Assembly (NCBI RefSeq): GCF_050920415.1
Contig: NZ_CP169309.1
Source of the DNA: Escherichia coli
GTDB taxonomy: Bacteria > Pseudomonadota > Gammaproteobacteria > Enterobacterales > Enterobacteriaceae
Length of the DNA stretch: 64,000 nt
Strand: one strand, 5' to 3'
Shown here piece by piece: positions 1 through 61,466 of this stretch (the first letter of the stretch is position 1; every line of letters starts with the position of its first letter). A program made the translations under genes and the position numbers. Below the pieces are notes generated by a model. That model saw nothing but the letters and a program-made list of their open reading frames with translations, was not told the origin of the DNA and ran no database searches.

Positions 1-12
1 GGCAATGTAATC

Positions 13-915
13 ATGCGCTGGATTAAAACAGCCCGTGACCGTGATGAAATGGAAAGGCTAATGCAAGCGGCTTGCGATGCTTTCACGGAAGAAATACCCC
101 GAGCGGAGGCCGTGCCAGTGCCGGAAATTGATTTTCAAAAAAGTCTGGCCCTTTATCCGGTATTCGATTTGCATATAGGGGCGCTTGCTCATAAAGCTGA
201 GTGCGGCGAAAGCTACGACACCGGGATCGCTGAACGCGTGCTAAATGATTTCTTTGACTACGCGGTAGGCGCTGCGCCAATGTCTGAAAAGGCTGTTTTG
301 CTTCTCGGCGGTGATGTGCTTCACACTGACGGCCTGTTACCAGTGACGCCATCAAGTAATCACGTTTTAGATTGTGATTCACGCTACGCAAAACTGGTTT
401 ATGTGGCGATCCGGTCGGTCCGGCGTGCGGTCGGGAAGATGTTACTAAATCATAAGGATGTCGAGATCCAGGTATTATCCGGTAATCACGACCAATCAGG
501 TATGATCTGGCTACGTGCTGCGCTTGCGGCTTTTTACGAAGATGAGCCGCGTGTGACTGTTGACGTGTCACCTGCCATTGTCCACCACACACAGTACGGC
601 AAAACATTCCTTGCTTACCACCACGGGCACACTATCAAAAAGCCAGAAAATTTACTTTCTGCCTGCGTTTCTGACTGGCGGGAGGATTTCGGCAAGTCGT
701 CGGCGGTTTACGCTCATTGCGGGCACTGGCATCATCAACGGCTGATTGAATCATCGTTAGGCGTTGTCGAGTATCACGGCACATTAGCTGGCAAAGACGC
801 TTATTCAACGAATGGCGGCTGGCGGTCGCGGAGGCTGGCGGCGGTAATAATTTACAGTCCTGATCACGGGGAGATCGGGCGCTTTGTTTATTACCCTGAA
901 TATTCCATTTTGTAA
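13..915 (+). CDS. Calcineurin-like metallophosphoesterase-fold protein (phage-associated); may be 5'-truncated by the window edge
   Basis: Motifs DLHIG, GGDVLHTDG, GNHD, HHGH, GHWHH in the translation; reading frame is open back to position 1. Confidence 0.55.
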   Translation: MRWIKTARDRDEMERLMQAACDAFTEEIPRAEAVPVPEIDFQKSLALYPVFDLHIGALAHKAECGESYDTGIAERVLNDFFDYAVGAAPMSEKAVLLLGGDVLHTDGLLPVTPSSNHVLDCDSRYAKLVYVAIRSVRRAVGKMLLNHKDVEIQVLSGNHDQSGMIWLRAALAAFYEDEPRVTVDVSPAIVHHTQYGKTFLAYHHGHTIKKPENLLSACVSDWREDFGKSSAVYAHCGHWHHQRLIESSLGVVEYHGTLAGKDAYSTNGGWRSRRLAAVIIYSPDHGEIGRFVYYPEYSIL

Positions 916-933
916 ACCTGAGGAAATACCATA

Positions 934-2355
934 ATGGTGACTGAGCAAGTAAACTCATTACGCCAGGAACGGGAAGCTGCTGTGATAGGTGGACTCCTGT
1001 TAGGCGGGCTTACTCCTAACGCGCAAGATGTTCTTGCTACGCTCGATCCTGAAGTCTTCACCATTCCACTATATAAACGAGCGTTTGAGATCATCCGGGC
1101 GCAAGCCAGAAACAGAAACCTTATTGACGCGCTGATGGTCGGTGATGAAATCGGTAACGAAAATTTTGTCCCGCTAATGCAAACTGCGCGATCGTGTCCA
1201 TCTGCCGCCAACCTGAAGGGGTACGCCGCGCTATTGCAGGAGGAATATCAGCGGCGGCAAATGCTGGAACTAATGGACGATATACGCTACAACCTGGAAA
1301 CCGGGACACTTGAATCTGTCAGGGAGACGATGAAATATTTTGATTCCCGGTATTCAAAATTAAAGGTAACAAAAGATCAGATTATCCCGGTGCTGTTGCG
1401 CGATGCTGTCCAGGAATACACGGAAGTGCTAAGTAAACGCATGGAGTGTGGCGTGAACTCTGACAACATCAAAACAGGGATTGACCCACTCGACGAAATG
1501 TTAGGCGGCATTAACGCTACTGATCTGGTGCTTATAGCTGGACGCCCAGGGTCTGGTAAATCTGCGTTGGCGTTGGCAATTGCCCGCGCGGCGGCTGAAC
1601 GTCCATACCCTGGCAGCGAAGGTCAACGGGTCGGCGTTTTGCTGTTCACGCTTGAAATGTCGCTCGATCAGATGACTGAACGAGCTATCGCTGGCGCTGG
1701 GAATTTATCAACGGATTGCCTACGTAATCCGGTAAAACTGGATGACGAAGGATGGGCGCACGTTGCCCAGGGGATGAGCGCCCTTGCCGATCTCGATGTG
1801 TGGATTGTTGACGCATCGCAGTTAACGGTTGAGGAAATACGCGCCACCGTCGAACGGATGAAACAGGACCATCCTAATCTTGGAATGGTGATGATTGACT
1901 ACATCGGGTTAATGAAACTGGCTAAGGCCGAACGTCATGATCTCGCCGTAGGGCAATTGTCGTGGTCATTGAAAATGATGGCGAAAGAGTTGCGCGTGCC
2001 AGTGGCGGCGCTGGCGCAATTATCCCGCCGCGTTGAAGAACGACCGAACAAGCGCCCGAACAATTCTGATCTGCGTGATTCCGGTAATCTTGAACAAGAC
2101 GCAGACCGGATCATCATGGTCTACCGCGACGGCTACTACAACGAACAATCAGTTGCCCGCGAATACATGGAGATCATCGTTTCAAAAAACCGTCACGGGA
2201 AAACGGGGACTGTTTACCAGCGGTTTGACGATAACGGCAACATCATTCCATGCGACCAGGCTCGCGCGGCGTCCGCCTGCATCCAGTCAATGCAACAACG
2301 TCCGGCAGCAAGCCGATTCTCCCCACGAAATAACCAGAATAACTCATCCTTTTAA
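934..2355 (+). CDS. DnaB-like replicative DNA helicase (phage type)
   Basis: 473 aa; Walker A motif GRPGSGKSALALAIA and DnaB-like N- and C-terminal regions; GAGGA ribosome-binding site before the ATG. Confidence 0.8.
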   Translation: MVTEQVNSLRQEREAAVIGGLLLGGLTPNAQDVLATLDPEVFTIPLYKRAFEIIRAQARNRNLIDALMVGDEIGNENFVPLMQTARSCPSAANLKGYAALLQEEYQRRQMLELMDDIRYNLETGTLESVRETMKYFDSRYSKLKVTKDQIIPVLLRDAVQEYTEVLSKRMECGVNSDNIKTGIDPLDEMLGGINATDLVLIAGRPGSGKSALALAIARAAAERPYPGSEGQRVGVLLFTLEMSLDQMTERAIAGAGNLSTDCLRNPVKLDDEGWAHVAQGMSALADLDVWIVDASQLTVEEIRATVERMKQDHPNLGMVMIDYIGLMKLAKAERHDLAVGQLSWSLKMMAKELRVPVAALAQLSRRVEERPNKRPNNSDLRDSGNLEQDADRIIMVYRDGYYNEQSVAREYMEIIVSKNRHGKTGTVYQRFDDNGNIIPCDQARAASACIQSMQQRPAASRFSPRNNQNNSSF

Positions 2356-2434
2356 TTAACTTGAGCAAACGGCTTACCGGAAAGTTGATCTCTTTCTGGT
2401 GGCTGTTTTCGCGCTTAAAACGAGGCGAAAAACA

Positions 2435-2992
2435 ATGAGCATTGAACTTGAAACAAAAGTTATCAATATCCTTGAACTGGACGGCATCGCAACAATGCAC
2501 CAGCTACGCCAGAAAACCGGATTATCAGCGGAATATGACGAAGCCGGATGTTTGCCTGAGACAATTAAACACTTGATTGATACTGGTATTGTCGAGCGTG
2601 TATATACATATTTCGGACCGCGCCGCAGATTATTGGGGTATCGAATTAAATATTTGTATGCACAACGTCGTGATCGTGTGGCGGCGTTATTTAGTGACTA
2701 CAGCGTTAAGAAGCGTATGCGTGACATTAGCGCGGAAACTGGTATCCCGTGGAATTACCTGTCGCGCACGCTGCGTTTAATGGTACTTGATGAAACGCTT
2801 TGCATAGACACCAATAAACACGGCCTTAACTTTTACTCACTGTTTAAACCTGGTCGCTTTGGTCACGCTAATGATCTCGCGTTTGATTTTGACAGCCGCC
2901 TGAATGAATACCGGAAAAATAACGGCCTGTTACCGGATAAACCAGTATTTGAGATCGAAAAACTTAACGGTGAAACGGGGTTAGAATTATGA
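2435..2992 (+). CDS. Hypothetical phage protein with an N-terminal winged-helix-like segment
   Basis: ORF 2399-2992; start chosen at MSIELETKV after a GAGG ribosome-binding site; no recognised family. Confidence 0.45.
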   Translation: MSIELETKVINILELDGIATMHQLRQKTGLSAEYDEAGCLPETIKHLIDTGIVERVYTYFGPRRRLLGYRIKYLYAQRRDRVAALFSDYSVKKRMRDISAETGIPWNYLSRTLRLMVLDETLCIDTNKHGLNFYSLFKPGRFGHANDLAFDFDSRLNEYRKNNGLLPDKPVFEIEKLNGETGLEL

Positions 2993-3195
2993 GACGGGTA
3001 ATCTTTTATTCAGTTGAAACGTTTGTCGACGATACGCGCGTTTATTATCCGTGGGAAGTATACGACGCAAAGGTGTATACACCGCCACTGATGCGGAAAT
3101 ATAAACACGTAAAATTTAACCGGGTTTTTGTGCCAATGCGCGATGCATTGCGGGCGCTGCGCGGGGAATTACGAAACACAATGCGGATTGTGTAA
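2989..3195 (+). CDS. Hypothetical small phage protein (68 aa)
   Basis: ATGA start/stop overlap with the upstream ORF suggests translational coupling; no recognisable motif. Confidence 0.35.
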   Translation: MRRVIFYSVETFVDDTRVYYPWEVYDAKVYTPPLMRKYKHVKFNRVFVPMRDALRALRGELRNTMRIV

Positions 3196-3205
3196 GGAGG
3201 GGATT

Positions 3206-3403
3206 ATGAACAAGGATTTAGAATTGACCGTGGAGGATTTAAGCACGATTGCGGAATACATGCGCGGCGATGATCCTGATAAACCTGTCACTGTTGACAT
3301 GAAATATTTAAAAGGCGCTTACATGACAAGCTCGCGGCTAATTTCTTTGCAGGCGATTATGTATGCGCGGGCGCAATGGAAAAATAGCAACGGTGTATTA
3401 TGA
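3206..3403 (+). CDS. Hypothetical small phage protein (65 aa)
   Basis: Strong Shine-Dalgarno AAGGAGG 6 nt upstream of the ATG at 3206; stop overlaps the NinB-like start. Confidence 0.45.
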   Translation: MNKDLELTVEDLSTIAEYMRGDDPDKPVTVDMKYLKGAYMTSSRLISLQAIMYARAQWKNSNGVL

Positions 3404-3831
3404 GGCAAATTAGATTTGAAGTAGTTAATGACGCCGTGAAAGAAAATGCTATCAGGCAGATAAGGGAAATACAGCCTGATAGCAAAAGCCCGCTGATAAT
3501 TACCATCCAGGAGAAAACCCGCTCACTAAGCCAAAATGCGTTGCTTTGGGCGCTGCTAACCGACATTAGCGATCAGGTTAATTGGTACGGCAAGAAGCTG
3601 TCTCCGGAAGACTGGAAAGCGGTATTCACTGCCGGACTTAAGAAATATGGCGTCGTCCCTAACCTGGATAAATCCGGCTTCGTTGTATTGGGAACGTCTA
3701 CAAGCCGGATGAGCAAATCGGAATTCAGTGAACTAATCGAATTAATTTACTCGTTCGGTGCTGAACATAATGTCCAATGGTCGGGTGATACGAAATTAAA
3801 TGAGGAATTCATAAAACGCTGGGGGCAATAA
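3400..3831 (+). CDS. NinB-like recombination protein (lambda Orf/NinB family)
   Basis: 143 aa; pattern IQEKTRSLSQNALLWALLTDISDQVNWYGKKLSPEDWKAVFTAGL resembles lambda NinB as recalled from memory. Confidence 0.7.
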   Translation: MRQIRFEVVNDAVKENAIRQIREIQPDSKSPLIITIQEKTRSLSQNALLWALLTDISDQVNWYGKKLSPEDWKAVFTAGLKKYGVVPNLDKSGFVVLGTSTSRMSKSEFSELIELIYSFGAEHNVQWSGDTKLNEEFIKRWGQ

Positions 3832-4007
3832 TGGCGCGTTATTATATGGCTAAACCTACCGGAATTTTGTATAAGGTTGATGGCGAATACGTTTTTTATT
3901 TTCACAACCAGGCGCGAGAGTGGCGATTGTGTCACGCGCACTTTCAGCACGAAATAGAAAACCACCCTGAATATTTTATTAAGGTTGACAATGTAACGGT
4001 GGCGTAA
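3831..4007 (+). CDS. Hypothetical small phage protein (58 aa)
   Basis: ATG overlaps the NinB-like stop by 1 nt (TAATG); translation MARYYMAKPTGILYKVDGEYVFYFHNQAREWRLCHAHFQHEIENHPEYFIKVDNVTVA; below the ORF-track length cut-off. Confidence 0.35.
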   Translation: MARYYMAKPTGILYKVDGEYVFYFHNQAREWRLCHAHFQHEIENHPEYFIKVDNVTVA

Positions 4008-4022
4008 CTGAGGATAGGCAAA

Positions 4023-4667
4023 ATGAATAAACTTAAAGCAATTGGCGTAATTCGCCATCGTGTAGACCCGGACTACCCTTCTTTTGAGGTTGCCACATAC
4101 CGCAACGAATACCAATATGGATCATCTTTCCTTGTGGGTGTTCGCGCTGATACTGGCGGCACTTATTCAGTTATGGCGGCTTCATGTGTTTTTGAAGAAT
4201 ATAAAAATATAGATGATGACGGCATGAATAAAGAAAGCGAAATTATTGATGAATTAATCGAAGATGAGCGGCATGATTGCGATGCGCCGAAAGTCACGGA
4301 ATGGAAACCAGGAGAAAAGCCTCCGTGCGGCGTGTGGCTTGATTGTTATTATCCTGATGGCTATCACATTGGGATTTTAATGTTTAAATTTATCGGTGAT
4401 AAATACGGGGTATACACAGAAAAAGGCAGTATACAGAAAGAAAATGCTATTGAATGGGGTTTTTATAATTATTATTTATACGTTGATCCGAAAGAAAAAG
4501 CACTGGCACAAATTGCGTTTGCGTTGGCTGCTAAGGTTATTGGTGAGGATGCGGCAGGAGAAATAAATTTCAATCGTGATAATGATTATTCGCGTGATTA
4601 TCGGAATATGGCAAAAGCCATTATTAATGGGGATATCCCGCTAACTAAATATAACGGGGATAAGTGA
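4023..4667 (+). CDS. Hypothetical protein, AT-rich cargo ORF (214 aa), function unknown
   Basis: GAGGA ribosome-binding site; markedly lower GC than flanking genes; acidic stretch followed by a Cys/His-containing segment (HDCDAPKVTEWKPGEKPPCGVWLDCYYPDGYH). Confidence 0.5.
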   Translation: MNKLKAIGVIRHRVDPDYPSFEVATYRNEYQYGSSFLVGVRADTGGTYSVMAASCVFEEYKNIDDDGMNKESEIIDELIEDERHDCDAPKVTEWKPGEKPPCGVWLDCYYPDGYHIGILMFKFIGDKYGVYTEKGSIQKENAIEWGFYNYYLYVDPKEKALAQIAFALAAKVIGEDAAGEINFNRDNDYSRDYRNMAKAIINGDIPLTKYNGDK

Positions 4668-4897
4668 TGGATAAAACCGCGACATTGTTATTGACTACGG
4701 CACGAATAAGGGAAATGCTCGGAGGAATAAGTAGGACAACATTCAGAGTATGGAAAATGAAATGGGAAGCGGCTGGAACACCATTTCCTGAACCGCTTCA
4801 CGAATTATCAACTACGTCGCGCCCTGTATATCGTTATCAAGATGTAATGCAGTTCTTTAAGTCAGTAGGCTTGCTTTCTGATACTGATAAAACGTAA
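4664..4897 (+). CDS. Putative excisionase / AlpA-family DNA-binding protein
   Basis: 77 aa; helix-turn-helix-like TTARIREMLGGISRTTFRVWK; lies next to the integrase; start overlaps the upstream stop (ATGA). Confidence 0.45.
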   Translation: MMDKTATLLLTTARIREMLGGISRTTFRVWKMKWEAAGTPFPEPLHELSTTSRPVYRYQDVMQFFKSVGLLSDTDKT

Positions 4898-6057
4898 TTA
4901 GCCCATAATTCCGCAGCGTCTTTCTGTTCTTCTACATAATCATATCTGTCATAAACTCCTAATACTCCGCCCAGGGTATGGCCCAACATTTTTTCGGCTA
5001 CCTGGGCGGTCACGCCTAATGCCGCTAAATGCGTGCGGCACGTCCGGCGCAAATCATGCGCAGTAAAACCCGCCTTAAATCCAATTTCATTACTAAGCCT
5101 TGTCGCTAGTCTTGTGCACACAGCTTTATCCATTGGTTTACCATCCAGCGACAATACCGCAGGGAAAACTATGTCGAAGTTGTGACAATTAAACATCATG
5201 CTTAATAGCTCGACGCTTAACGTTGACAGGCCGCGCGTAAACCGCTTTTTGTTTTTGGATAGTTCCGCAGGAATATTCCATACCCTGTTATTGAGATCAA
5301 AATGTTCACGCTTTGCTAGCCTCAATTCTACCGTCCTGCATCCTGTTAATAGCAGTAGTCTGAAGAATGTCATATTGGCCTTAGACATAAAATCGCCAGT
5401 CGTAAAACGCCAGAATTCCCCTACTTCCTCGCCAGATAAATATCTGTCGATCTTGCGCGGCGGTTTGCCAACGTCTTCCACTCGCAACAAGCGGATCTCG
5501 TTGTCTTTTACTATCCCTTTCCTTTGCGCCATAGCGACAATGGATTTCATGCGTCGTAACATCGCGCCAGCCTGTACCGGATGGCCCGCTTTCGTTATCT
5601 CTGAGAATATTGCCTCCCACGCCCTTGCGTTAATGTCATCCACAATAAAATCGCCATACCTCTTGATTATGTGCTTTTGTAAGTTTTGCTTGATCTCTTT
5701 GTATCCCTTAATTTCCCTGGTCGTCTGTTTATTAAGATAGTTGTTAACGATATCGCTAACGGTTGCTCTCGCCCTCGCCTCTTCAATGCGCTGCTTCTTA
5801 GCAAGTCCGGGATCTTTGCCGTCTGCTAATATCGCCTTGCACTCAATTACCGCTAGCCTGGCTTCCTTTAGCGTCATTATGCCATAGTTGCCTAGCTTCA
5901 TTCTTTTAGGCTTCCCGTCATACCTGTAGCGATACTGAAACGTAATTACGCCTTTCGGGCTTACCCTTACTGACAGACCGCCGCCATCCGGGATCTCGAC
6001 CGGACCATCATAACTTTTACCGTGGATGCTTCTTAACTTAGTGTCAGATAACGCCAT
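4837..6057 (-). CDS. Site-specific tyrosine integrase (P4 family)
   Basis: 406 aa; N-terminal arm-binding-type region (GLSVRVSPKGVITFQYRYRYDGK), C-terminal catalytic signature HDLRRT...LGH...YDRY. Confidence 0.85.
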   Translation of the reverse strand: MALSDTKLRSIHGKSYDGPVEIPDGGGLSVRVSPKGVITFQYRYRYDGKPKRMKLGNYGIMTLKEARLAVIECKAILADGKDPGLAKKQRIEEARARATVSDIVNNYLNKQTTREIKGYKEIKQNLQKHIIKRYGDFIVDDINARAWEAIFSEITKAGHPVQAGAMLRRMKSIVAMAQRKGIVKDNEIRLLRVEDVGKPPRKIDRYLSGEEVGEFWRFTTGDFMSKANMTFFRLLLLTGCRTVELRLAKREHFDLNNRVWNIPAELSKNKKRFTRGLSTLSVELLSMMFNCHNFDIVFPAVLSLDGKPMDKAVCTRLATRLSNEIGFKAGFTAHDLRRTCRTHLAALGVTAQVAEKMLGHTLGGVLGVYDRYDYVEEQKDAAELWANYVLSVSESKPTDLKNCITS

Positions 6058-6464
6058 AATCGCCCCTTATTTGGTGCACAACATGGTACACAAATCATGG
6101 TTTACGCAATATAACGCAAAAGCGCGCTTGTTTACAGCGAAAACCAGTAAATCTACTAAATTCATGGCGTTAGGGGTGATTTTGCTTGCGTATGTTTACG
6201 CTTGTGCGCGGTATGTAGCATTAGAAAGAGAAATGCTGCTGACCAACAGCGCACAACACGTGACTGAAACAGAGTGCTTCATAAGTTACCCTCAAACCTG
6301 CGTTAATAATCATGCGTAATTATTTGTTTCGCCTTAAAGAAATGCAAACAACTTCCGGCAAAAAAGTGATACGAGATCGATAACATAGCGTTGAAGAAAA
6401 GGATTTGATAATCCGCAAAATTTGCACAACACTGCCTGTAATACTTCCTGAACCAGAGACGATC

Positions 6465-7193
6465 ATGACCGTAACTCGCCCACGCGCCGAACGCGGCGCA
6501 TTTCCGCCCGGTACAGAACATTACGGACGTTCATTATTGGGCGCGCCTTTGATCTGGTTTCCGGCCCCAGCCGCCAGTCACGAAAGTGGTTTGATTCTGG
6601 CTGGCACCCACGGTGATGAAAACTCTTCGGTCGTGACCCTCTCCTGTGCTCTGCGGACATTGACACCTTCTTTGCGCCGCCATCATGTGGTGCTGTGTGT
6701 GAATCCTGACGGCTGCCAGTTAGGGTTACGGGCCAATGCTAATGGCGTGGATTTAAATAGAAACTTTCCGGCAGCAAACTGGAAGGAAGGTGAAACGGTT
6801 TATCGCTGGAACAGCGCCGCTGAAGAACGTGATGTCGTTTTACTGACAGGTGACAAACCTGGCTCCGAACCTGAAACTCAGGCGCTGTGCCAGCTTATAC
6901 ATCGCATTCAACCTGCCTGGGTGGTCTCATTCCACGATCCACTGGCCTGTATTGAAGACCCCAGACACAGCGAATTAGGTGAATGGCTGGCCCAGGCGTT
7001 TGAATTGCCACTGGTAACCAGCGTCGGTTATGAAACGCCTGGCTCTTTCGGCAGTTGGTGTGCAGATCTGAACTTGCATTGCATCACCGCAGAGTTTCCG
7101 CCCATCTCCTCCGACGAAGCCAGCGAAAAATATCTCTTTGCGATGGCAAACTTGCTGCGCTGGCATCCTAAAGATGCAATTCACCCGTTGTGA
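6465..7193 (+). CDS. mpaA: Murein peptide amidase A (gamma-D-Glu-Dap amidase)
   Basis: Translation MTVTRPRAERGAFPPGTEHYGRS...; 242 aa from the internal ATG, matching the known length. Confidence 0.85.
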   Translation: MTVTRPRAERGAFPPGTEHYGRSLLGAPLIWFPAPAASHESGLILAGTHGDENSSVVTLSCALRTLTPSLRRHHVVLCVNPDGCQLGLRANANGVDLNRNFPAANWKEGETVYRWNSAAEERDVVLLTGDKPGSEPETQALCQLIHRIQPAWVVSFHDPLACIEDPRHSELGEWLAQAFELPLVTSVGYETPGSFGSWCADLNLHCITAEFPPISSDEASEKYLFAMANLLRWHPKDAIHPL

Positions 7194-8133
7194 ACTGAAG
7201 CGCCGGTTCCACATCTACCGCCAGCCAGGTCGGTCCGTCAAGATCGGCGAAACTGACCTGCGGCACCAGCGGTAAAGCGGCGCTAATGGCACGAGAGGTA
7301 CACAACATGCAGCCCAGCATCAGACTAAAACCTTGTGCACGTGCTTCAGTCGCCAGCGCCAGCGCTTCCGTCAGGCCACCCGTTTTATCGAGCTTAATGT
7401 TAACCATCTCATAGCGCCCTTGCAGCGCCTTCAGATTGCTACGAGTATGACAACTTTCATCTGCACAAATCGGTAACGGATGAATAAAATTCTCCAGTGC
7501 CGCATCGTCCTGCGCAGGAAGCGGTTGTTCAAGCATCGCAACGCCTAAATCCGCCAATAGCTGGCAACGCGCCGCCAACCCTTCTGAACGCCAGGATTCA
7601 TTTGCATCAACGATCAGCGTCGCATCGGGCACAGCTGTGCGAATTGCCACCATCCGCTCACTGATAAGATGGTTATCCAGCTTCACTTTCAGTAATTTCG
7701 CGCCTGCCTGCCAGAGTGTTGATGCACTATTGGCCATCTGATCAGGCGTACCGATGACTACCGTCTGGGCAGTGGTGACTGTCTCGGGAAGCGTTATGCC
7801 GATCAAATCAGCCAGCGATTGCTGCTGTTTTCGCGCCGCCAGATCCCACAATGCACAATCCAGCGCATTACGTGCTGCGCCGGCAGGGAGAATTTTTTGC
7901 AACTCCTCCCGTGTCAGCCCTTTCTCTAATTGCGGCACGACGCTCATAATTTGCGCCATTACCGAGGCATCACTTTCTCCATAACGCGGATACGGCGTGC
8001 ATTCACCGGTGCCTTTAATACCTTCTTCTTCCAGTTCAACCACCACCACGCGCGCTTCACTACGACTTCCCCGAGCAATCACAAACGGGGTATGTAAGGG
8101 CCAGGCTTCCTCAAATACCTTAACGGTTCTCAT
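7168..8133 (-). CDS. ycjG: L-Ala-D/L-Glu epimerase
   Basis: Enolase-superfamily translation MRTVKVFEEAWPLHTPFVIARGSR...; 321 aa; 3' end overlaps mpaA convergently. Confidence 0.85.
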   Translation of the reverse strand: MRTVKVFEEAWPLHTPFVIARGSRSEARVVVVELEEEGIKGTGECTPYPRYGESDASVMAQIMSVVPQLEKGLTREELQKILPAGAARNALDCALWDLAARKQQQSLADLIGITLPETVTTAQTVVIGTPDQMANSASTLWQAGAKLLKVKLDNHLISERMVAIRTAVPDATLIVDANESWRSEGLAARCQLLADLGVAMLEQPLPAQDDAALENFIHPLPICADESCHTRSNLKALQGRYEMVNIKLDKTGGLTEALALATEARAQGFSLMLGCMLCTSRAISAALPLVPQVSFADLDGPTWLAVDVEPALQFTTGELHL

Positions 8134-8251
8134 CTTTACTCCTTGTTGTCGCGGTGGTCTGCAGATTAAGCGCAAATAGCGTTTGCTGTGTTATTGACAG
8201 TTAGCATAAACTAGGTGTGACGTTAACTATATGTAAACAGGAAAGATAATC

Positions 8252-8758
8252 ATGTCACAAACCGTTCATTTCCAGGGCAACCCGGTTACAGTCGCCAATT
8301 CCATCCCGCTGGCGGGTAGCAAAGCGCAGACTTTTACTCTCGTGGCAAAAGATCTGTCTGACGTCACCCTCGGTCAGTTTGCGGGTAAACGCAAAGTGCT
8401 GAACATTTTCCCGAGTATTGATACCGGTGTTTGCGCCGCATCAGTACGTAAGTTTAACCAACTGGCAACCGAGATCGACAACACCGTTGTGCTGTGTATC
8501 TCTGCTGATCTGCCGTTCGCCCAGTCTCGTTTCTGCGGCGCAGAAGGTCTGAACAACGTTATCACCCTCTCCACTTTCCGTAACGCTGAATTCCTGCAAG
8601 CCTACGGTGTGGCAATTGCTGATGGCCCACTGAAAGGTCTGGCAGCGCGTGCCGTTGTGGTTATCGATGAAAATGACAATGTGATTTTCAGCCAGCTGGT
8701 TGATGAAATCACCACCGAGCCGGATTACGAAGCAGCTCTGGCTGTACTGAAAGCATAA
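8252..8758 (+). CDS. tpx: Thiol peroxidase
   Basis: 168 aa; [28 protein letters not shown]... Confidence 0.92.
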
Positions 8759-8762
8759 GTTA

Positions 8763-8795
8763 ATATGCCTGATGGTGTTGCACCATCAGGCATAT
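8763..8795. terminator. Hairpin between convergent tpx and tyrR (putative bidirectional terminator)
   Basis: Perfect 15-bp inverted repeat atatgcctgatggtg / caccatcaggcatat with a 3-nt loop. Confidence 0.55.
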
Positions 8796-8801
8796 TCGCG
8801 C

Positions 8802-10343
8802 TTACTCTTCGTTCTTCTTCTGACTCAGACCATATTCCCGCAACTTATTGGCAATCGCGGTATGCGAAACGCCGAGACGTTTTGCCAGTTTGCGCGTGCT
8901 GGGATAATTGCGATAAAGCTGACTTAATACCGAGCGTTCAAAACGGCTGGTAATTTCGTCCAGCGAACCTTCCATCGCATCTTCGCCCACGGCTACCGTT
9001 GCGGCGTCATAATCCGGCAACAAAATATCCTGAGGACGCAGCTCATAGCCGTCCAGTTGTGTCAGTGCGCGATAGATAGCGTTCTTTAACTGCCGCACAT
9101 TTCCCGGCCACGCATAACGCGTAAGTACAGTATTCAGGTCAGCGGCCAGTTTCGGACGCGGCACGCCCTGCTCGTCGGCAAAGCGGGCGACGAACAGCTC
9201 GGTTAACGGCATGATGTCCTGCGGACAGTCACGTAACGGCGGCAGATTGAGCGTCAACACGTTCAGACGATAATAGAGATCTTCACGGAACACGCCTTTT
9301 TGCACCAGTTCGACCAAATTCTTCTGCGTAGCGCAAATAACCCTTACATCGACATGCACTTCATGATCTTCACCAACTCGACGGAAAGTACCATCATTAA
9401 GGAAACGCAGTAATTTCGCCTGCATCCTTGGCGACATCTCGCCTATCTCATCTAACAGCACCGAACCACCGTTCGCCTGCTCAAAGAACCCTTTTTTACC
9501 TTCCGGAGCATGACCAAACAGTTCACTCTCGACCGCATCTTCCGGTATAGACGCGCAGTTCAGCGCCAGATAAGGTTTGCCCGCTCGTGGGCTTGCCTGA
9601 TGGCAGGCGTAGGCAAAGAGATCTTTACCTGTACCGGTGTCACCCGTAATCAGCAACGGCGCGCTTAGCATCGCCAGTTTCTGCGCCTGTTCGACAACAT
9701 GCTTCATTTTCGGGCTGACGGCGACAATTTGACTGAAGGCACTGACGTCCTGTGCAGCGACATTCTGCAACTGACGACCCATACGAATCGTCGAGCGCAA
9801 CATCACCACCGCACCGGTCAGAACGTGTTGATCATTTTCATCCTGAAGATAAACAGGCGTAATCTCCATCAGGAAATTCTGCCCATTAATAACGACATGC
9901 TCGTTATGCGAGTCTTGCGGTTCGCTTTCCAGCCAGCGTAAAAAATTAAAGCCGTTAATTAATTGCGCGGCGGTATGGTTGCGCAGGCGATCCAATTTTT
10001 GCCCAAAAAGCTGACAGCTCGCCGGGTTCGCCATATCCACTTTGCTTTTCATATCAACAGAAAGCACAGGCTCAGGCAACGCCTCCAGTAACGCGCTCAA
10101 CGCCAGATGCTCACGTTCGGAAGGCATCCACGGAACAGTGCGCACATCGGTAACACCTGCAATACGGCGTATTTCGGCCATCAGACTGCTGAAACTTTCA
10201 AATTCCAGTTCGGCAAAATTGAGGTAGATTCGCCCAATGGGGTCAATCTCAATACCGCGTAAATCAATACCTCTTAGCACGAGTAGATCGAGTAATTCGC
10301 GGGTCAGACCGAGTCGGTCTTCACAAAAGACTTCCAGACGCAT
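8802..10343 (-). CDS. tyrR: Transcriptional regulator TyrR (sigma54-type AAA+ fold)
   Basis: MRLEVFCEDRLGLTRELLDLLVLRGIDLRGIEIDPIGRIYLNF...; 513 aa from the internal ATG. Confidence 0.9.
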   Translation of the reverse strand: MRLEVFCEDRLGLTRELLDLLVLRGIDLRGIEIDPIGRIYLNFAELEFESFSSLMAEIRRIAGVTDVRTVPWMPSEREHLALSALLEALPEPVLSVDMKSKVDMANPASCQLFGQKLDRLRNHTAAQLINGFNFLRWLESEPQDSHNEHVVINGQNFLMEITPVYLQDENDQHVLTGAVVMLRSTIRMGRQLQNVAAQDVSAFSQIVAVSPKMKHVVEQAQKLAMLSAPLLITGDTGTGKDLFAYACHQASPRAGKPYLALNCASIPEDAVESELFGHAPEGKKGFFEQANGGSVLLDEIGEMSPRMQAKLLRFLNDGTFRRVGEDHEVHVDVRVICATQKNLVELVQKGVFREDLYYRLNVLTLNLPPLRDCPQDIMPLTELFVARFADEQGVPRPKLAADLNTVLTRYAWPGNVRQLKNAIYRALTQLDGYELRPQDILLPDYDAATVAVGEDAMEGSLDEITSRFERSVLSQLYRNYPSTRKLAKRLGVSHTAIANKLREYGLSQKKNEE

Positions 10344-10413
10344 GGGAACCTTCACCTGAAAAAAGAACAATTAATATGATGATATGACACTATTTGGATA
10401 GCAGGAAGGTTTC

Positions 10414-10431
10414 TGTCAACAATCATTGACA
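10414..10431. promoter_or_regulatory. TyrR-box-like palindrome in the tyrR upstream region
   Basis: tgtcaacaatcattgaca = TGTCAA-N6-TTGACA, close to the TyrR box consensus TGTAAA-N6-TTTACA. Confidence 0.4.
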
Positions 10432-10490
10432 CAAAGACGGAAAAACGGGCACTTCGGCGTAAAGATATCCGGTCAGCACCCGATATTGCA

Positions 10491-11552
10491 TTATTTTTCG
10501 CTGGGCGTTTTGCCTTTTTGCAGCGTCTCTTTCACCTGACCGATAAGCTGACGACGGAAATCCCCGAGGCGAGGTTTGTCATCGTCAATCCACGGCAGCG
10601 GGCGGCAAAGCTCCATAGCTTTAATCCCCAGTCGTGCCGTCAGAAGTCCAGCACCAATTCCCTGAGCTGCGCGGGTAGACAAACGCGCAGCGAGATCTTG
10701 CGACATCCAGTCCATCCCCACTTCGCGCACCAATTCGCTGGCTCCGGCAAAAGCGATATTCAGCAATACCAGCTTAAACAGGCGCAAACGGCTGTAATAT
10801 CCCAGTTCAATGCCATACAGCGTGGCGATGCGATTGATCAAACGCAGATTGCGCCAGGCGATAAATGCCATATCCACCAGCGCCAGCGGGCTAACGGCGA
10901 TCATTAACGTTGATTCCGCCGCTGAGCGACTGATTTCGCGCCGCGCCTGGGCATCTAAAACCGGCTGGACCAGATGAGCATACAGGCTGACCACTTCACG
11001 ATCGTTCTGCGTTTCATGGATTGAGGCATACCAGCGTTGCAGTGCCGGATGCGACTGGTCGATGCCCGCCTGCTGCGCCAGTTTTTCGCAGAATGCACGG
11101 CCTTTACCCGTGCCGTGGCTGTGCAACAAATCGCGCGCTTCGTCGCGTTCATGGGCGCGCTGTCGCAAGCGCCATAAGCGCCGCCACTCTGTTACCACAG
11201 AACCTACGCCAGCGCCGATAATCAATGCCCCAGCGGCACAGCCGCCCAGGGCCACCCAGTCCTGAGTTTGCCAGGCGTTCATCGTCCACTGCACACCCTG
11301 ACCAACAACGCTTGCACCAAACAGAGCCAACCCGCCCATCACCATTTTGCGCCACAGGCTGCGTTTCGGACGTAACGCTGCGTCCATCACCGCTTCAACT
11401 TGCCCCTCTTCTTCCTGCGCTTCGTCGAGCGTGGCCGGGGCAAAATTTTGCGCCTGATTTTCGTCAAAGGTCTGCTGCGCCCTGAATTTTGGATTCTGAT
11501 CGACCTCCAGTGGACCGTCGAAATCAATACGTGGTTTTAACGGTTCGGTCAT
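10491..11552 (-). CDS. ycjF: Inner membrane protein YcjF (DUF697-type)
   Basis: 353 aa; hydrophobic core segments; 4-nt overlap with ycjX. Confidence 0.8.
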
Positions 11553-12946
11553 CGCAATTTATCTCCTATTAAAAATTCCAGCGCAGCATCAAGGCGAATA
11601 TGCGGCAACGGTTTGTCGACATCCATTACCTGCGGGCGAAACGCCTCAAACTGGAAGCCTTGCTTATCCCAGAACGCCTGGCCAGGCAAACGTGCGGGAA
11701 CTTCGCCAGGATACACAGTGAGCGGTGCGCCATCGCTGAGTCGATTACCGCGCAGCGCCGGGATTTTCTCACCGTTAACATCAATAATGCCGCTGGTGGT
11801 CGCCTGAACTGACGCCAGCCCCAGGCAGTCCATGCTGATCCCTTCGAACGCCGCATTTTGCCAGGCATCCTGAATCAGTTGTTGCAGTAATGAAACCATA
11901 TTGGCGTGCTGATCGATGGTCACATGATCCGCTTTAGTGGCAGCAAACAATAGCTTATCGATAACCGGCGAAAACAAGCGCCGGAACAAGGTACGCTGCC
12001 CGTAGTGGAAGCTTTGCATCAGCTGCGTCAGCGCCAGACGCATATCATTGAATGCTTGTGGTCCACTGTTGAGAGGTTGCAGGCAATCCACCAGCACAAT
12101 CTGCCGATCAAAGCGCAGAAAATGATTTTTATAGAATCCCTTCACCACTTTCTCGCAGTAATAATTAAATCGTTCGCGCAGCATTCCGGCATTGGTGTGC
12201 TTGTCGGCTTGTGCTAGTTTTGATTCGCCCCAGGCATCGACATCTGGCCACGGGAAGAATTGCAGCGCGGGCGCACCTGCCATATCGCCCGGCAAGACAA
12301 AACGCCCAGGCTGAATAAAGTGCAGCCCCTGCTGTTTGCAGTGGTGGAGATAATCGGTCCATGCGGCAGCAATGTCTGCAAGACGGTTTTCGTCGGCAGG
12401 TGCTAGTGGGTCCAGCCCTTCGCACATCATTCGCCATTTTGCCGACCATTCGCCGCGCTGACCATTGAGTAAGCCCGTCATCTGGCGCGACCAGCTTAAA
12501 TAGTCCTGCGCCAACATCGGCAAGTCGAGTAACCATTCGCCAGGATAATCCACTATCTCCAGATACAACGTGGAAGTGTCTTTGAAGTGACGCAACAGCG
12601 AATCGTTCGATTTATAGCGTAGCGCCAGGCGAATCTCACTGACGCCGCGTGTTGGGGTTGGCCAGGCGGGAGGATCGCCATATAACTGCGCCAGCCCTTC
12701 ATCGTAGGTGAAGCGCGGAATGCCAAAGTCACGCTGGGGAATGCGTTTTACGCCCAGCAGGCGCTCTTCACGCACCGCACTTAATAGCGGCAAGCGTGCT
12801 CCGGCATGAATATTGAGCAACTGATTGACCATCGCAGTGATAAACGCGGTTTTGCCGCTGCGGCTAAGTCCGGTTACAGCGAGGCGCAGATGTCTGTCGA
12901 CACCCCGATTCACCAGCGCATTAAGTTCATTTTTAAGTCGCTTCAT
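11549..12946 (-). CDS. ycjX: P-loop NTPase YcjX (DUF463-type)
   Basis: [35 protein letters not shown]... (Walker A GLSRSGKT); 465 aa from the internal ATG. Confidence 0.8.
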
Positions 12947-25155: not shown

Positions 25156-26835
25156 TTATTTAATCCACATAACCTGCCAGGGGCGCAGCGTTATTTCATT
25201 ATCCACTATATCAACTTCACTAATCAGATCCCGACCGTGCAGGTCAGTAATATTTATATGCAGAATATTTTCACTGACATTAAACAACCCCGTCAGACAA
25301 TCACCAGTTGCAGTGCTTCTTCGAATACGCATTACAGATGAATTAACCGTATCGATGGTAAAACTATTATCCGGATGAAATTCTTTATGCCGGCGACGAA
25401 GCGTAATTAAATGCGACAACTGATGATATACTGCGTGCCTGAGTGTCGTTTCATCGTTCAGTTCACTGGCTATCTCTTCACTACGATATTTCTTACGGTT
25501 AATCGCACGGTTATATCCCGGCTTTTCGACACCAGCGTAATCATTACGTGAACCCAGAATACTTTGAATATAGACAGCAGGCACACCGGGAAAGGTTAAC
25601 AATATGGCATGAGCAAGAATAAACCGGGCACAGCGTTCTTCGTCACTGCAATCGCGATGGCTCAATGCGTCCATGTAGGTCACATTCATTTCATACGGAC
25701 TGCGCGTACCATCGGGATTATTTTTCCAGTTTACTAATGCCCCTTCCTGCTGTAACGCCTCGACTAGCGCTAATATCTCGCTTTCAGGCAACAAGCCTCG
25801 CAGTGGGTTAAGTCCAATACCATCATGAGACGCGAGGAAGTTAAACCAGGTGGTTTTGCTGGAAGGCAACGTCAGACTTTGCGCCCACTGGCACAGCGCC
25901 TGGACGTTCTGTTTTTGCACCGCATGTAACACCAGCGGCGGCAGTGAGAACTGGTACACCATATGCGCTTCGTCATCGCCGTTGCCAAAGTAAGCAATGT
26001 TGTCTTTATGCGGGACATTGGTCTCAGTAATGATGACCGTCCCCGGCGCGACGCTGTCAGTAATGGCGCGTAACAGTTTGATAATTTGATGTGTTTTATC
26101 CAGGTGGATGCAACTCGTTCCCGGCTCTTTCCACATAAAGCCAACGGCATCCAGACGGACATACTCTGCGCCTTTTTCCAGGTAACACATCAGCACATCT
26201 ACCATCGCCAGTAATACATCTGGGCTGCGATAATTGAGGTCAATTTGATCGTCGCTAAAGGTCGTCCATAAATGGCGCATTGAATTATCGTGCATTTTAA
26301 ACGGCGTTAATAAGGGTAACGCGCGTGGGCGAGTGACGGCGCTAAGATCGGTTTGCGGGTCAACAGCAATGAAAAAGTCTTCAAAGCCTGGCTTTTGTTG
26401 TAAATAGTTTTTAAACCATTCACTTTTAGCCGACATGTGGTTGCAGACAAAATCAAACATTAAATGACTGCATTCACCGAGTTGCTGAATATCCTGCCAC
26501 TCCCCCGCTTCACTGGCGACCTGATGATAATCAATTACCGAAAAGCCATCATCAGATGACCATGGATAAAACGGCAATAAATGAACATGTGAAAAAATGC
26601 TTTGCAGCCAGTGATGGTAAAACTGATTAAATGTGGGTAGTGGTTTTAAATCATTACTGTGAAATTGATCGGCATAGGTAATTAACACGACATCACTTTC
26701 ATCCCAGTGTTTTTTACGTCGCTGTGTAATTAATCTTTTCGCACTCTCAAGACGCGTTACAAGTTTCTGTAAATGAGTCGCGGTAAATGTTCCACCGTAG
26801 ATTTCGTCCAGGTAATCCGTAATTTTCTGTTTCAT
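25156..26835 (-). CDS. ycjM: GH13 sucrose-phosphorylase-like glycoside phosphorylase
   Basis: MKQKITDYLDEIYGG...; 559 aa from the internal ATG. Confidence 0.85.
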   Translation of the reverse strand: MKQKITDYLDEIYGGTFTATHLQKLVTRLESAKRLITQRRKKHWDESDVVLITYADQFHSNDLKPLPTFNQFYHHWLQSIFSHVHLLPFYPWSSDDGFSVIDYHQVASEAGEWQDIQQLGECSHLMFDFVCNHMSAKSEWFKNYLQQKPGFEDFFIAVDPQTDLSAVTRPRALPLLTPFKMHDNSMRHLWTTFSDDQIDLNYRSPDVLLAMVDVLMCYLEKGAEYVRLDAVGFMWKEPGTSCIHLDKTHQIIKLLRAITDSVAPGTVIITETNVPHKDNIAYFGNGDDEAHMVYQFSLPPLVLHAVQKQNVQALCQWAQSLTLPSSKTTWFNFLASHDGIGLNPLRGLLPESEILALVEALQQEGALVNWKNNPDGTRSPYEMNVTYMDALSHRDCSDEERCARFILAHAILLTFPGVPAVYIQSILGSRNDYAGVEKPGYNRAINRKKYRSEEIASELNDETTLRHAVYHQLSHLITLRRRHKEFHPDNSFTIDTVNSSVMRIRRSTATGDCLTGLFNVSENILHINITDLHGRDLISEVDIVDNEITLRPWQVMWIK

Positions 26836-30236: not shown

Positions 30237-31502
30237 TTAATCGCTCAGCGCATCCTGCAATATTTTCATTGCCGCATCGAATTGCGCATCCGGGATGGTC
30301 AGCGGATACAGGAAGCGAATCACGTTGCCGTATGCACCACAGGTCAGCAGGAGCAGCCCCTGCGCCAGCGCGCGTTGCTGGATTTTCTGTGCAATCGCCG
30401 CTGACGGCTCGCCCGTTTGCGGATCGTTAAACTCTGCCGCAATCATCGACCCCAGACCGCGTACCGCCGCGATGGCCGGAACGCTTTCTTTGGCATCAAT
30501 CAACGTATTTGTCAGACGCTGGCCCAGTTGATTAGCGCGTTCACAGAGTGATTCTTTGTCGATAATGTTGAGCACCGCGTGCGCGGCAGCCACCGCCAGC
30601 GGGTTCCCGGCGTAGGTACCACCAAGTCCGCCCGGCGCGGGCGCGTCCATAATATTCGCGTTACCGACCACGCCCGAAAGCGGCATCCCGCCCGCGAGGC
30701 TTTTCGCCATTGTCATTAAGTCCGGCTTATCGGCGTAGTGATCCATGGCAAACAGTTTACCGGTACGCGCAAAGCCGCTTTGCACTTCATCGGCAATCAT
30801 CACAATACCGTGCTCGTCGCACAGGCGGCGAATGGCGGCAACCAGCTCTTTTGGCGCAACGTTGAAACCGCCTTCGCCCTGCACCGGTTCGAAAATAATC
30901 GCCGCCACCTGCTTCGCTTCAATGTCCGATTTAAACAAGCGTTCGATGGCATCGAGGGAGTCCTGCGTTGAAACGCCATGTAAATCTGACGGATAAGGTA
31001 CGTGATACACCGAACCGGGGAACGGGCCGAAGCCGATTTTGTACGGCGCGACCTTTCCGGTCAGCGCCATGGTCATATATGTACGACCGTGGAAGCCGCC
31101 GCTAAACGCAATCACGCCAGGGCGTCCGGTATGGGCGCGGGCGATTTTCACCGCGTTCTCCACCGCTTCCGCATCGGTGGTGAAGAACGCGGTTTTAGCC
31201 TGCCCGCTCACCGGGGCAAGGGCGTTGATTTTCTCCGCCAGGGTGACGTAGCTTTCGTACGGCACAATCTGATACGCCGTGTGGGTAAACTGTTGCAATT
31301 GCTGCTCCACCGCCGCGACCAGATCAGGGTGGCGATGCCCGGTATTCAGCACCGCAATGCCTGCGGCGAAATCGATATATTCGTTGCCCTCTACATCCTT
31401 CAGCGTGGCGTTTTCTGCCGACTGGGCGAAGAAGTTACACATCACGCCAACCCCGCGTGGGGTAGCAGAAAGACGACGCTGATGGAATTCATTGTTGCTC
31501 AT
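30237..31502 (-). CDS. puuE: 4-aminobutyrate aminotransferase
   Basis: 421 aa; class-III PLP aminotransferase sequence. Confidence 0.88.
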   Translation of the reverse strand: MSNNEFHQRRLSATPRGVGVMCNFFAQSAENATLKDVEGNEYIDFAAGIAVLNTGHRHPDLVAAVEQQLQQFTHTAYQIVPYESYVTLAEKINALAPVSGQAKTAFFTTDAEAVENAVKIARAHTGRPGVIAFSGGFHGRTYMTMALTGKVAPYKIGFGPFPGSVYHVPYPSDLHGVSTQDSLDAIERLFKSDIEAKQVAAIIFEPVQGEGGFNVAPKELVAAIRRLCDEHGIVMIADEVQSGFARTGKLFAMDHYADKPDLMTMAKSLAGGMPLSGVVGNANIMDAPAPGGLGGTYAGNPLAVAAAHAVLNIIDKESLCERANQLGQRLTNTLIDAKESVPAIAAVRGLGSMIAAEFNDPQTGEPSAAIAQKIQQRALAQGLLLLTCGAYGNVIRFLYPLTIPDAQFDAAMKILQDALSD

Positions 31503-61094: not shown

Positions 61095-61466
61095 AGCTCC
61101 TCCTTAATGACAGGGTTGCGAAGCCCTGATTCTCTTCAGGGTGAATATTAAAGATAACACAAACATTGCGTAACGATTTGATAACAACCCAAATTGATAA
61201 AAGAGGAGAAACCTTGTGGCAAAGCAAATGAAAACCCCGCCGCAGCGGGGTCAGGGATCAGTGAGTAATGATCCAGAGGAGTTCGGCCCAGAAGAGCATC
61301 GACAGAGAAAATGCGCCCATCCAGGACCAATATTTCATATTTGTGTTGATCATAGGCTACACCCTTAACGGTTATTACTTTGTGTTGAGATAACTCAACC
61401 TGTTATTGCTGCGGTGTATTAAAAGCCCTTTAATTCATTAAAAATGGGTAATAAGAATGATGATAA

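Follow-up and report, generated by a model that had tools for sequence, protein, structure and literature searches.

A probable mEp021-like prophage integrated within the 5' region of mppA in Escherichia coli

We analysed a 64,000-nucleotide stretch of Escherichia coli DNA (hereafter the window; contig NZ_CP169309.1, RefSeq assembly GCF_050920415.1), whose first 6 kb had been flagged in a preliminary description as a prophage-like element next to the murein tripeptide amidase gene mpaA. Window positions 1-6223 very probably represent the integrase-proximal end of a temperate siphovirus of the mEpimmI group (mEp021-like, non-lambdoid) that is integrated inside mppA. With the same high probability, the part seen comprises the late stretch of the rightward early/replication operon, a candidate excisionase (Xis), the integrase (Int) and the P' arm of the attachment (att) site of a phage with an expected size of about 53-54 kb. 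The mEpimmI group consists of non-lambdoid, Nus-dependent phages with the archetype mEp021 of about 54 kb, and four integrase types have been defined for it (Negrete-Mendez et al. 2025, PMC11893012). The sole type III example given there is the prophage of E. coli O157:H7 LSU61, and mppA was published as the type III target from this one lysogen, as a locus only (PMC11893012). The element described here is a further member of this published family at this published attachment locus.

The boundary between phage and host DNA was located by a four-way alignment of att sites. The crossover core comprises 8 bp, TCTCTTTC, at window positions 6224-6231 (minus strand), corresponding to codons 18-20 of mppA. 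It is identical in the bacterial site attB (K-12 and MFDS1022581), in the attR sites of five lysogens, in the attL sites of two lysogens and in the attP site of a viral contig. As judged from these alignments, integration took place by site-specific recombination at the core, within the signal-peptide region of mppA, the gene of the periplasmic murein-tripeptide binding protein. In the window, attR is made up of the mppA promoter and first 20 codons, the core, the phage P' arm and int. Phage DNA ends at 6223/6231, and 6232-6464 is host DNA holding the first 17 mppA codons and the mppA-mpaA intergenic region. The features around this junction are:

4837-6057, minus strand: tyrosine integrase of 406 amino acids (PF13356, PF22022 and PF00589; PHROG 1 at 2e-66)
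6058-6223, minus strand: P' arm of attR, phage DNA with 95.6% identity to the phage contig up to position 6234
6196-6282, minus strand: orphan hybrid open reading frame (ORF) of 28 codons, in which the 20 native head codons of mppA (MKHSVSVTCCALLVSSISLS) are continued by the phage-derived residues NATYRAQA and a stop codon
6283-6464, no strand assigned: native divergent mppA-mpaA intergenic region of the host, 100% identical to MFDS1022581
6465-7193, plus strand: mpaA (murein tripeptide amidase; 729 bp), an untouched host gene (ORF list, RefSeq)

On the minus strand, the mppA start codon occupies 6282-6280, and the stop of the hybrid ORF lies at 6196. The distance from the int ATG to the mpaA ATG (6465) is 407 bp. 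The preliminary description had placed the insertion next to mpaA with int about 400 bp away; the distance was right, but the site lies inside mppA codons 18-20 and is not intergenic. The proposal that the element extends to 6464 did not hold, given the boundary at 6223/6231. The segment 6058-6464, regarded at the time as the junction, does contain attR, but it is a composite of P' arm, 8-bp core, orphan mppA head and native mppA-mpaA intergenic region. That K-12 lacks the element was correct; its mppA attB is unoccupied.

All four att sites could be read. The unoccupied attB of MFDS1022581 and K-12 has the form ...TCTCTTTC GTATGCTGCAGAAGTT..., and the attR string CAGCATTTCTCTTTCTAATGCTACATACC is the same in five independent lysogens, namely the window, LSU61, GF66.2, the metagenome contig ERZ1034969 NODE-2007 and the Logan contig SRR5939826_53. 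In LSU61 and GF66.2, attL was read as phage ...TTGCATAATA TCTCTTTC GTATGCTGCAG.... An intact attP was found in the 54.5-kb viral contig IMGVR_UViG_3300045988_060283, where the sequence ...TTGCATAATG TCTCTTTC TAATGCTACATACC... is exactly the predicted hybrid and contains GCATAATGTCTCTTTCTAATGCTACATA; the site lies 170 bp upstream of an int that is 99% identical to that of the window. The attL of the window's own prophage would be expected about 53 kb from attR, with the sequence ...TTGCCACTTTGCRTAATR-TCTCTTTC-GTATGCTGCAG (GTATGCTGCAGAAGTTCCG) leading into the remaining part of mppA beside ynaI. While the exact attP pattern derived from the LSU61 alleles had no match in IMG/VR, a degenerate pattern found the viral contig. 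Scanning metagenomes with the P-arm pattern gave nothing and with the P'-arm pattern one more lysogen, and a scan of the GTDB species representatives returned nothing.

Each att arm carries two direct copies of the repeat TGTGYRCCA, which are likely arm-type binding sites of Int. On the P' arm of the window these are TGTGTACCA (6092-6084) and TGTGCACCA (6080-6072), just upstream of the int ribosome-binding site, and the repeats recur on the P arm of attP and attL. For type III, attB, attP, attL and attR are thereby described explicitly as a set for the first time, including the 8-bp core and the arm-type repeats, and the number of known type III lysogens rises from one to five. No tRNA or tmRNA gene was found in window 1-12000, which rules out a tRNA gene as the integration target.

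The integrase has a P4-type architecture of three domains, Arm-DNA-bind_3 (PF13356, 4e-19), Phage_int_M (PF22022) and Phage_integrase (PF00589, 3e-16), and the catalytic R...HxxR...H...Y residues are legible in its translation (TGCRTVE, AHDLRRT, GHTLGG and VYDRYDY). Its amino acid identity reaches 98% to the enzymes of LSU61 and GF66.2 and 99% to those of the IMG/VR contig and ERZ1034969, compared with 47-49% to the type I and II enzymes of isolated mEp phages. Because the LSU61 integrase, at 98% identity, is the published type III example, we assign the window enzyme to the rare mEpimmI type III. Among 5,426 complete E. coli genomes, this type of int occurred in two (LSU61 and GF66.2). With other P4-type (Arm-DNA-bind_3/DUF4102) integrases, the enzyme shares the three domains and the direct arm-type repeats on both att arms; unlike them, it targets the 5' region of a protein-coding gene instead of a tRNA gene and belongs to a full-size phage instead of a satellite. 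The NCBIfam model PRK09692 gave 88 bits on the window Int against a cut-off of 434.

The assignment to the mEpimmI group rests further on gene content and order. Window 1-6057 holds ten intact phage ORFs, nine of which lie on the plus strand and point toward int, while int points inward. Prophage DNA in this segment, its continuation beyond the window start and this direction of transcription had all been recognized in the preliminary description. Besides int, the phage ORFs are:

13-915, plus strand: 3' 300 codons of a metallophosphoesterase or 'DNA repair exonuclease'-like gene (PHROG 704 at 1e-122)
934-2355, plus strand: DnaB-family replicative helicase (PHROG 19 at 2.6e-110; TIGR00665 at 1.6e-97), intact in relatives
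2435-2992, plus strand: MarR/Lrp-like winged-helix protein of 185 amino acids (PHROG 1687 at 2e-8; RefSeq homologues are named Lrp/AsnC family regulators)
2989-3195, plus strand: small conserved ORF of 68 amino acids (ORF list, relatives)
3203-3403, plus strand: small conserved ORF of 66 amino acids (ORF list, relatives)
3400-3831, plus strand: NinB/Orf recombination mediator (PHROG 72 at 7e-44; PF05772 on the homologue in locus L010)
3831-4007, plus strand: small ORF of 58 amino acids (ORF list, relatives)
4023-4667, plus strand: accessory ORF214 of 214 amino acids, in the lowest-GC stretch of the region (0.38-0.42)
4664-4897, plus strand: helix-turn-helix (HTH) protein of 77 amino acids, candidate excisionase or recombination directionality factor (PHROG 4745 'DNA binding protein' at 8e-9)

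Over window 1-4346, DNA identity to seven isolated coliphages of 53-55 kb (mEp021, mEp010, mEp013, mEp044, mEp515, mEp554 and MagusPhagus) amounts to 84-93%; for the replication/NinB module it is 84-86% to mEp021/515/554 and mEp010/013/044. Gene order and orientation are those of annotated mEp021, in which int is followed by a convergent HTH gene, a 654-bp hypothetical gene, NinB, small ORFs, the MarR-like gene, DnaB, the exonuclease-like gene, a replication protein, a cro-like gene and the repressor. Phages mEp021/515/554 (type I integrase, dgcM/ydaM site) and mEp010/013/044 (type II integrase, abgT site) share this module layout with the window, but their integrases are only 47-49% identical, their att sites differ and, at the dgcM site, the gene is simply cut. 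The closest characterized relative, the type III prophage of LSU61, agrees with the window in gene order and direction over the stretch between the exonuclease-like gene and int, and its attR at the mppA start is identical. The LSU61 prophage differs in an overall DNA identity of about 91% and in the N-terminal part of ORF214.

The layout of the window departs from the lambda-type order (att-int-xis-...-N-cI-cro-O-P-...-Q, with int toward att), since transcription of int leads away from att and the replication operon runs toward int. The preliminary description was right in calling this non-canonical for lambdoid phages, and the group was published as non-lambdoid (PMC11893012). Its further conclusion, that the convergent layout marks a mosaic or remnant, is not tenable. 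Phage genes converging on int are normal for the mEp021 group, because viable plaque-forming phages have the same layout.

We nevertheless considered a defective remnant or mosaic, of which only the few integrase-proximal kilobases survive and whose orientation stems from rearrangement. In favour of this stand the start of the window inside the element, with nothing visible to the left of the exonuclease-like gene, and the mosaic structure of ORF214 in comparison with LSU61 and GF66.2, in both of which window 4008-4211 is unmatched. However, one mosaic accessory gene is normal among phages, and all ten ORFs are intact, free of frameshifts and colinear with LSU61 and GF66.2, with mostly 95-100% protein identity to the ORFs of full-length relatives. 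Both complete-genome relatives with the same int, LSU61 and GF66.2, carry prophages that measure about 53 kb between attL and attR and include lysis and replication modules. In the parts examined, the annotated structural genes are those for capsid, tail and terminase in LSU61; in GF66.2 they are genes for tail fibres and host specificity. The closest integrase (99%) lies in the 54.5-kb viral contig. A remnant is unlikely on these grounds. For the window's own prophage, the left 47 kb or so, including attL, lie beyond the window start, and its completeness and its chimeric mppA are extrapolated from relatives, which weighs against reading it as an intact temperate phage. The other mEpimmI core genes (a 50-gene core including the CI-like repressor, the N-like antiterminator Gp17, structural and lysis genes) are present in LSU61 and GF66.2; in the window's prophage they would lie to the left of the window start.

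A phage satellite or P4/PICI-like island could likewise combine a P4-type integrase with a small AlpA-like HTH gene beside it and a helicase nearby, and the domain architecture of Int is indeed P4-type. The similarity (84-93%) and synteny of window 1-4346 with complete plaque-forming phages of 53-55 kb speak against this, as do the sizes of relatives with the same int (53-54.5 kb) and the head, tail and lysis genes of the LSU61 prophage. In addition, the helicase is a DnaB-type enzyme in a phage replication operon and not a P4 alpha-type primase-helicase. We regard a satellite as next to negligible in probability and retain the assignment to a full-size mEpimmI phage.

At the left end, the first 204 nt or so of the exonuclease-like gene precede the window start, as seen from the 1119-bp homologues at 19797-20915 of the relatives' loci L001 and L002. 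A Pfam search with this ORF gave no match; the metallophosphoesterase call is based on PHROG 704/284 and on the motifs DxH, GDxxH, GNHD and GHxH visible in the translation. The protein is 96-99.7% identical across four relatives. Within the module, ORF214 varies most, with 59-88% amino acid identity as opposed to mostly 95-100% for its neighbours. Its predicted structure comprises two small beta-barrels, an acidic linker and a helical tail, with generic structural matches only, and its family hardly extends beyond these phages (9 of 1.84 billion clusters). The variation is segmental: the N-terminal and middle barrels are variable, whereas the linker DDDGMNKESEIIDELIEDERHDCD and the helical tail are conserved. 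Far from the element, the enterobacterial small RNA STnc180 (61224-61426, minus strand, 203 bits) was the sole Rfam match at the gathering threshold in the 64-kb window.

The label of excisionase for the 77-amino-acid HTH protein, already proposed in the preliminary description, is suggestive at best. It is based on the position beside int, which is the same in mEp021, on 97-99% amino acid conservation in four relatives and on a non-significant hint of a MerR-type fold. The label is weakened by the lack of any Pfam match at E <= 0.001, of any NCBIfam match and of any PDB sequence match. The AF2 model (pLDDT 68) has a beta-alpha-alpha...beta-alpha topology, and the top Foldseek matches were MerR-family winged HTH proteins, RacA and the RdfS excisionase; every one of them had E > 0.6. 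A homologue search with this ORF gave three matches. If it is the excisionase, its production would be confined to times at which the rightward early operon is derepressed, which would give excision its direction. Its ORF and int overlap convergently by 61 bp (4837-4897), and the overlap has identical length in mEp021 despite only 47% Int identity. The overlap itself may be conserved, possibly for control by antisense transcription or transcriptional interference.

In K-12 the gene order at the host locus is mpaA-ymjC-ymjD-ycjY-pgrR-mppA, so the statement in the preliminary description that ymjC and ycjY lie at this position in K-12 was accurate. The host of the window lacks the block of about 4 kb from pgrR through ycjY and ymjD to ymjC, which brings mppA back-to-back with mpaA. 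The element had been taken to stand in place of ymjC/ycjY. The short mppA-mpaA arrangement, however, occurs in 173 of the 5,426 complete E. coli genomes. One of them is MFDS1022581, which matches window 6232-31000 (24.8 kb) at 100.0% identity and whose mppA site is unoccupied. Because these 173 genomes share the short form and MFDS1022581 combines it with an unoccupied site, the short form predates the insertion. These comparisons mark the lack of ymjC/ycjY as an indel polymorphism of the host, unrelated to the prophage and, in the window's lineage, older than it.

In genomes with the long form, an imperfect direct repeat, AAATRCAAACAACTTCC...AAAGTGAYAC (26340-26377 and 30333-30370 in locus L002; within 6300-6400 in the window), flanks the block, which suggests that the block was lost or gained through short-repeat recombination. 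A 33-bp overlap at window 6340-6372, shared by the match to the prophage end and the match to the DNA upstream of mpaA, was rejected as an att core or secondary attB: comparison with strains that have mppA back-to-back with mpaA (locus L003) identifies 6214-6520 as native host DNA, and the repeat bounds the pgrR-ymjC indel. The direct repeat would also make it mechanistically possible that the prophage first sat beside pgrR, as in LSU61 and GF66.2, and that a later deletion removed pgrR-ycjY-ymjD-ymjC. Against such a sequence of events stand the 173 genomes already in the short form and, again, the unoccupied short form of MFDS1022581 with its 100.0% identical flank; we consider it very improbable. 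The prophages of LSU61 and GF66.2 lie next to pgrR, whereas that of the window, whose host lacks pgrR-ycjY-ymjDC, abuts mpaA.

Two further observations concern the host. In MFDS1022581, mppA (2457-4069 of locus L003) is annotated as frameshifted, and the gene may be dispensable or decaying in this lineage. For the flank 6232-31000, most complete E. coli genomes (4,983 records) match at only 90-95% identity and just four at 99% or more. It appears either that the host lineage is uncommon or that the divergence is local to the ycj region.

In the free phage, attP lies within an ORF of 27 codons, MNKIMIYISFLPLCIMSLS-NATYRAQA followed by a stop codon (in full MNKIMIYISFLPLCIMSLSNATYRAQA). At attL of LSU61 and GF66.2, mppA is full-length and in frame, its first 19 codons are phage-encoded and the product is an MppA of 536 amino acids; RefSeq annotates mppA in both of these complete lysogens as a gene of 1611 bp and not as a pseudogene. 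The phage-encoded head resembles a signal peptide, with a basic N-end, a hydrophobic core comparable with that of the native head and the native SLSYA|A end kept. Three alleles of the head differ by two synonymous and three conservative changes, and the frame is never broken; the N-terminus of the chimeric protein reads MNKIMIYI(L/S)FLPLC(I/V)(I/M)SLSYA|AEVP. When P arms were shuffled, only 0.3% combined an ATG in frame and an uninterrupted reading frame with a hydrophobic core and a basic N-end. We infer that the phage head may act as a Sec signal peptide, so that MppA would still be made and exported.

Head replacement is not a habit of the whole family and was rejected as such: relatives of type Ib cut dgcM without the phage supplying a start, and their site is a plain disruption. 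Because of this, the in-frame mppA head is no generic by-product of integration. The type Ib site was seen in STEC308 (2296-2480 of locus L012, 4381-4800 of locus L013), with a core of about CTGTCTGGAT at dgcM codons ~15-18. RefSeq lists DgcM of this strain as an 'intact' protein of 398 amino acids starting from a non-canonical ATC right after an in-frame TGA, probably an annotation artefact over a disrupted gene.

Integration also changes the transcriptional surroundings on both sides. At attR, a sigma-70-like promoter match on the minus strand (6348-6319), in the native mppA-mpaA intergenic region, now faces int, and the native mppA promoter region points through the 28-codon orphan ORF into int. 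No terminator-like site was found between the core and the int ATG (6058-6223); the sole minus-strand call (6250-6235) lies inside native mppA coding sequence. At attL, a strong terminator follows the tail-fibre gene, and chimeric mppA would therefore depend on a weak phage promoter. The candidate, TTGYGY-16-TATTAT, scores 8/12, falls below the scanner threshold and overlaps the P-arm repeats. Integration would thus swap promoters: int would gain the native mppA promoter, and mppA would be left with a weak phage promoter overlapping the Int arm sites. A lysogen may then make Int from a host promoter, and excision would be gated by the 77-amino-acid HTH protein.

Taken together, we tentatively propose that the type III att cassette is a 'gene-head prosthesis with promoter exchange', consisting of a working Sec head, a functional phage-headed MppA and a captured mppA promoter that drives int; we regard this as possible, though somewhat doubtful. 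Several points weigh against it. No consensus sigma-70 promoter was called upstream of chimeric mppA, the Shine-Dalgarno sequence of the gene is poor, and it may be weakly expressed or silent. Furthermore, the criteria of the shuffle test were set after the sequence had been seen.

The group-defining paper of 2025 does not mention the in-frame phage-encoded mppA head (PMC11893012). A literature search for earlier reports in which a signal peptide was exchanged at an att site gave nothing relevant. Rebuilding of the entered gene is known for other prophages, such as e14 and phage 21, both of which act at the 3' end of icd, and Streptococcus pyogenes prophages that replace 5' ends. As in those cases, attP carries a surrogate gene end here and the target ORF stays open. 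Unlike them, the type found in the window supplies a 5' head, a putative signal peptide, with almost no similarity to the native one and leaves the native promoter pointing into int. The head swap is an incremental point and not a new kind of system.

The main value of the analysis is a corrected annotation of this region, with the element family, the mppA site, the boundary at 6224-6231 and an unrelated ymjC/ycjY indel. The new points are modest: the att set, four more lysogens together with the attP of a free phage, and the in-frame surrogate mppA head with the promoter exchange that it implies. If the head is functional, the prophage would keep the entered gene alive and re-wire both its own integrase and a peptidoglycan-recycling gene. 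Should the proposed prosthesis with promoter exchange hold true, it would tie integrase supply to host cell-wall turnover signals and explain why entering a useful gene at its 5' end is affordable for a phage.

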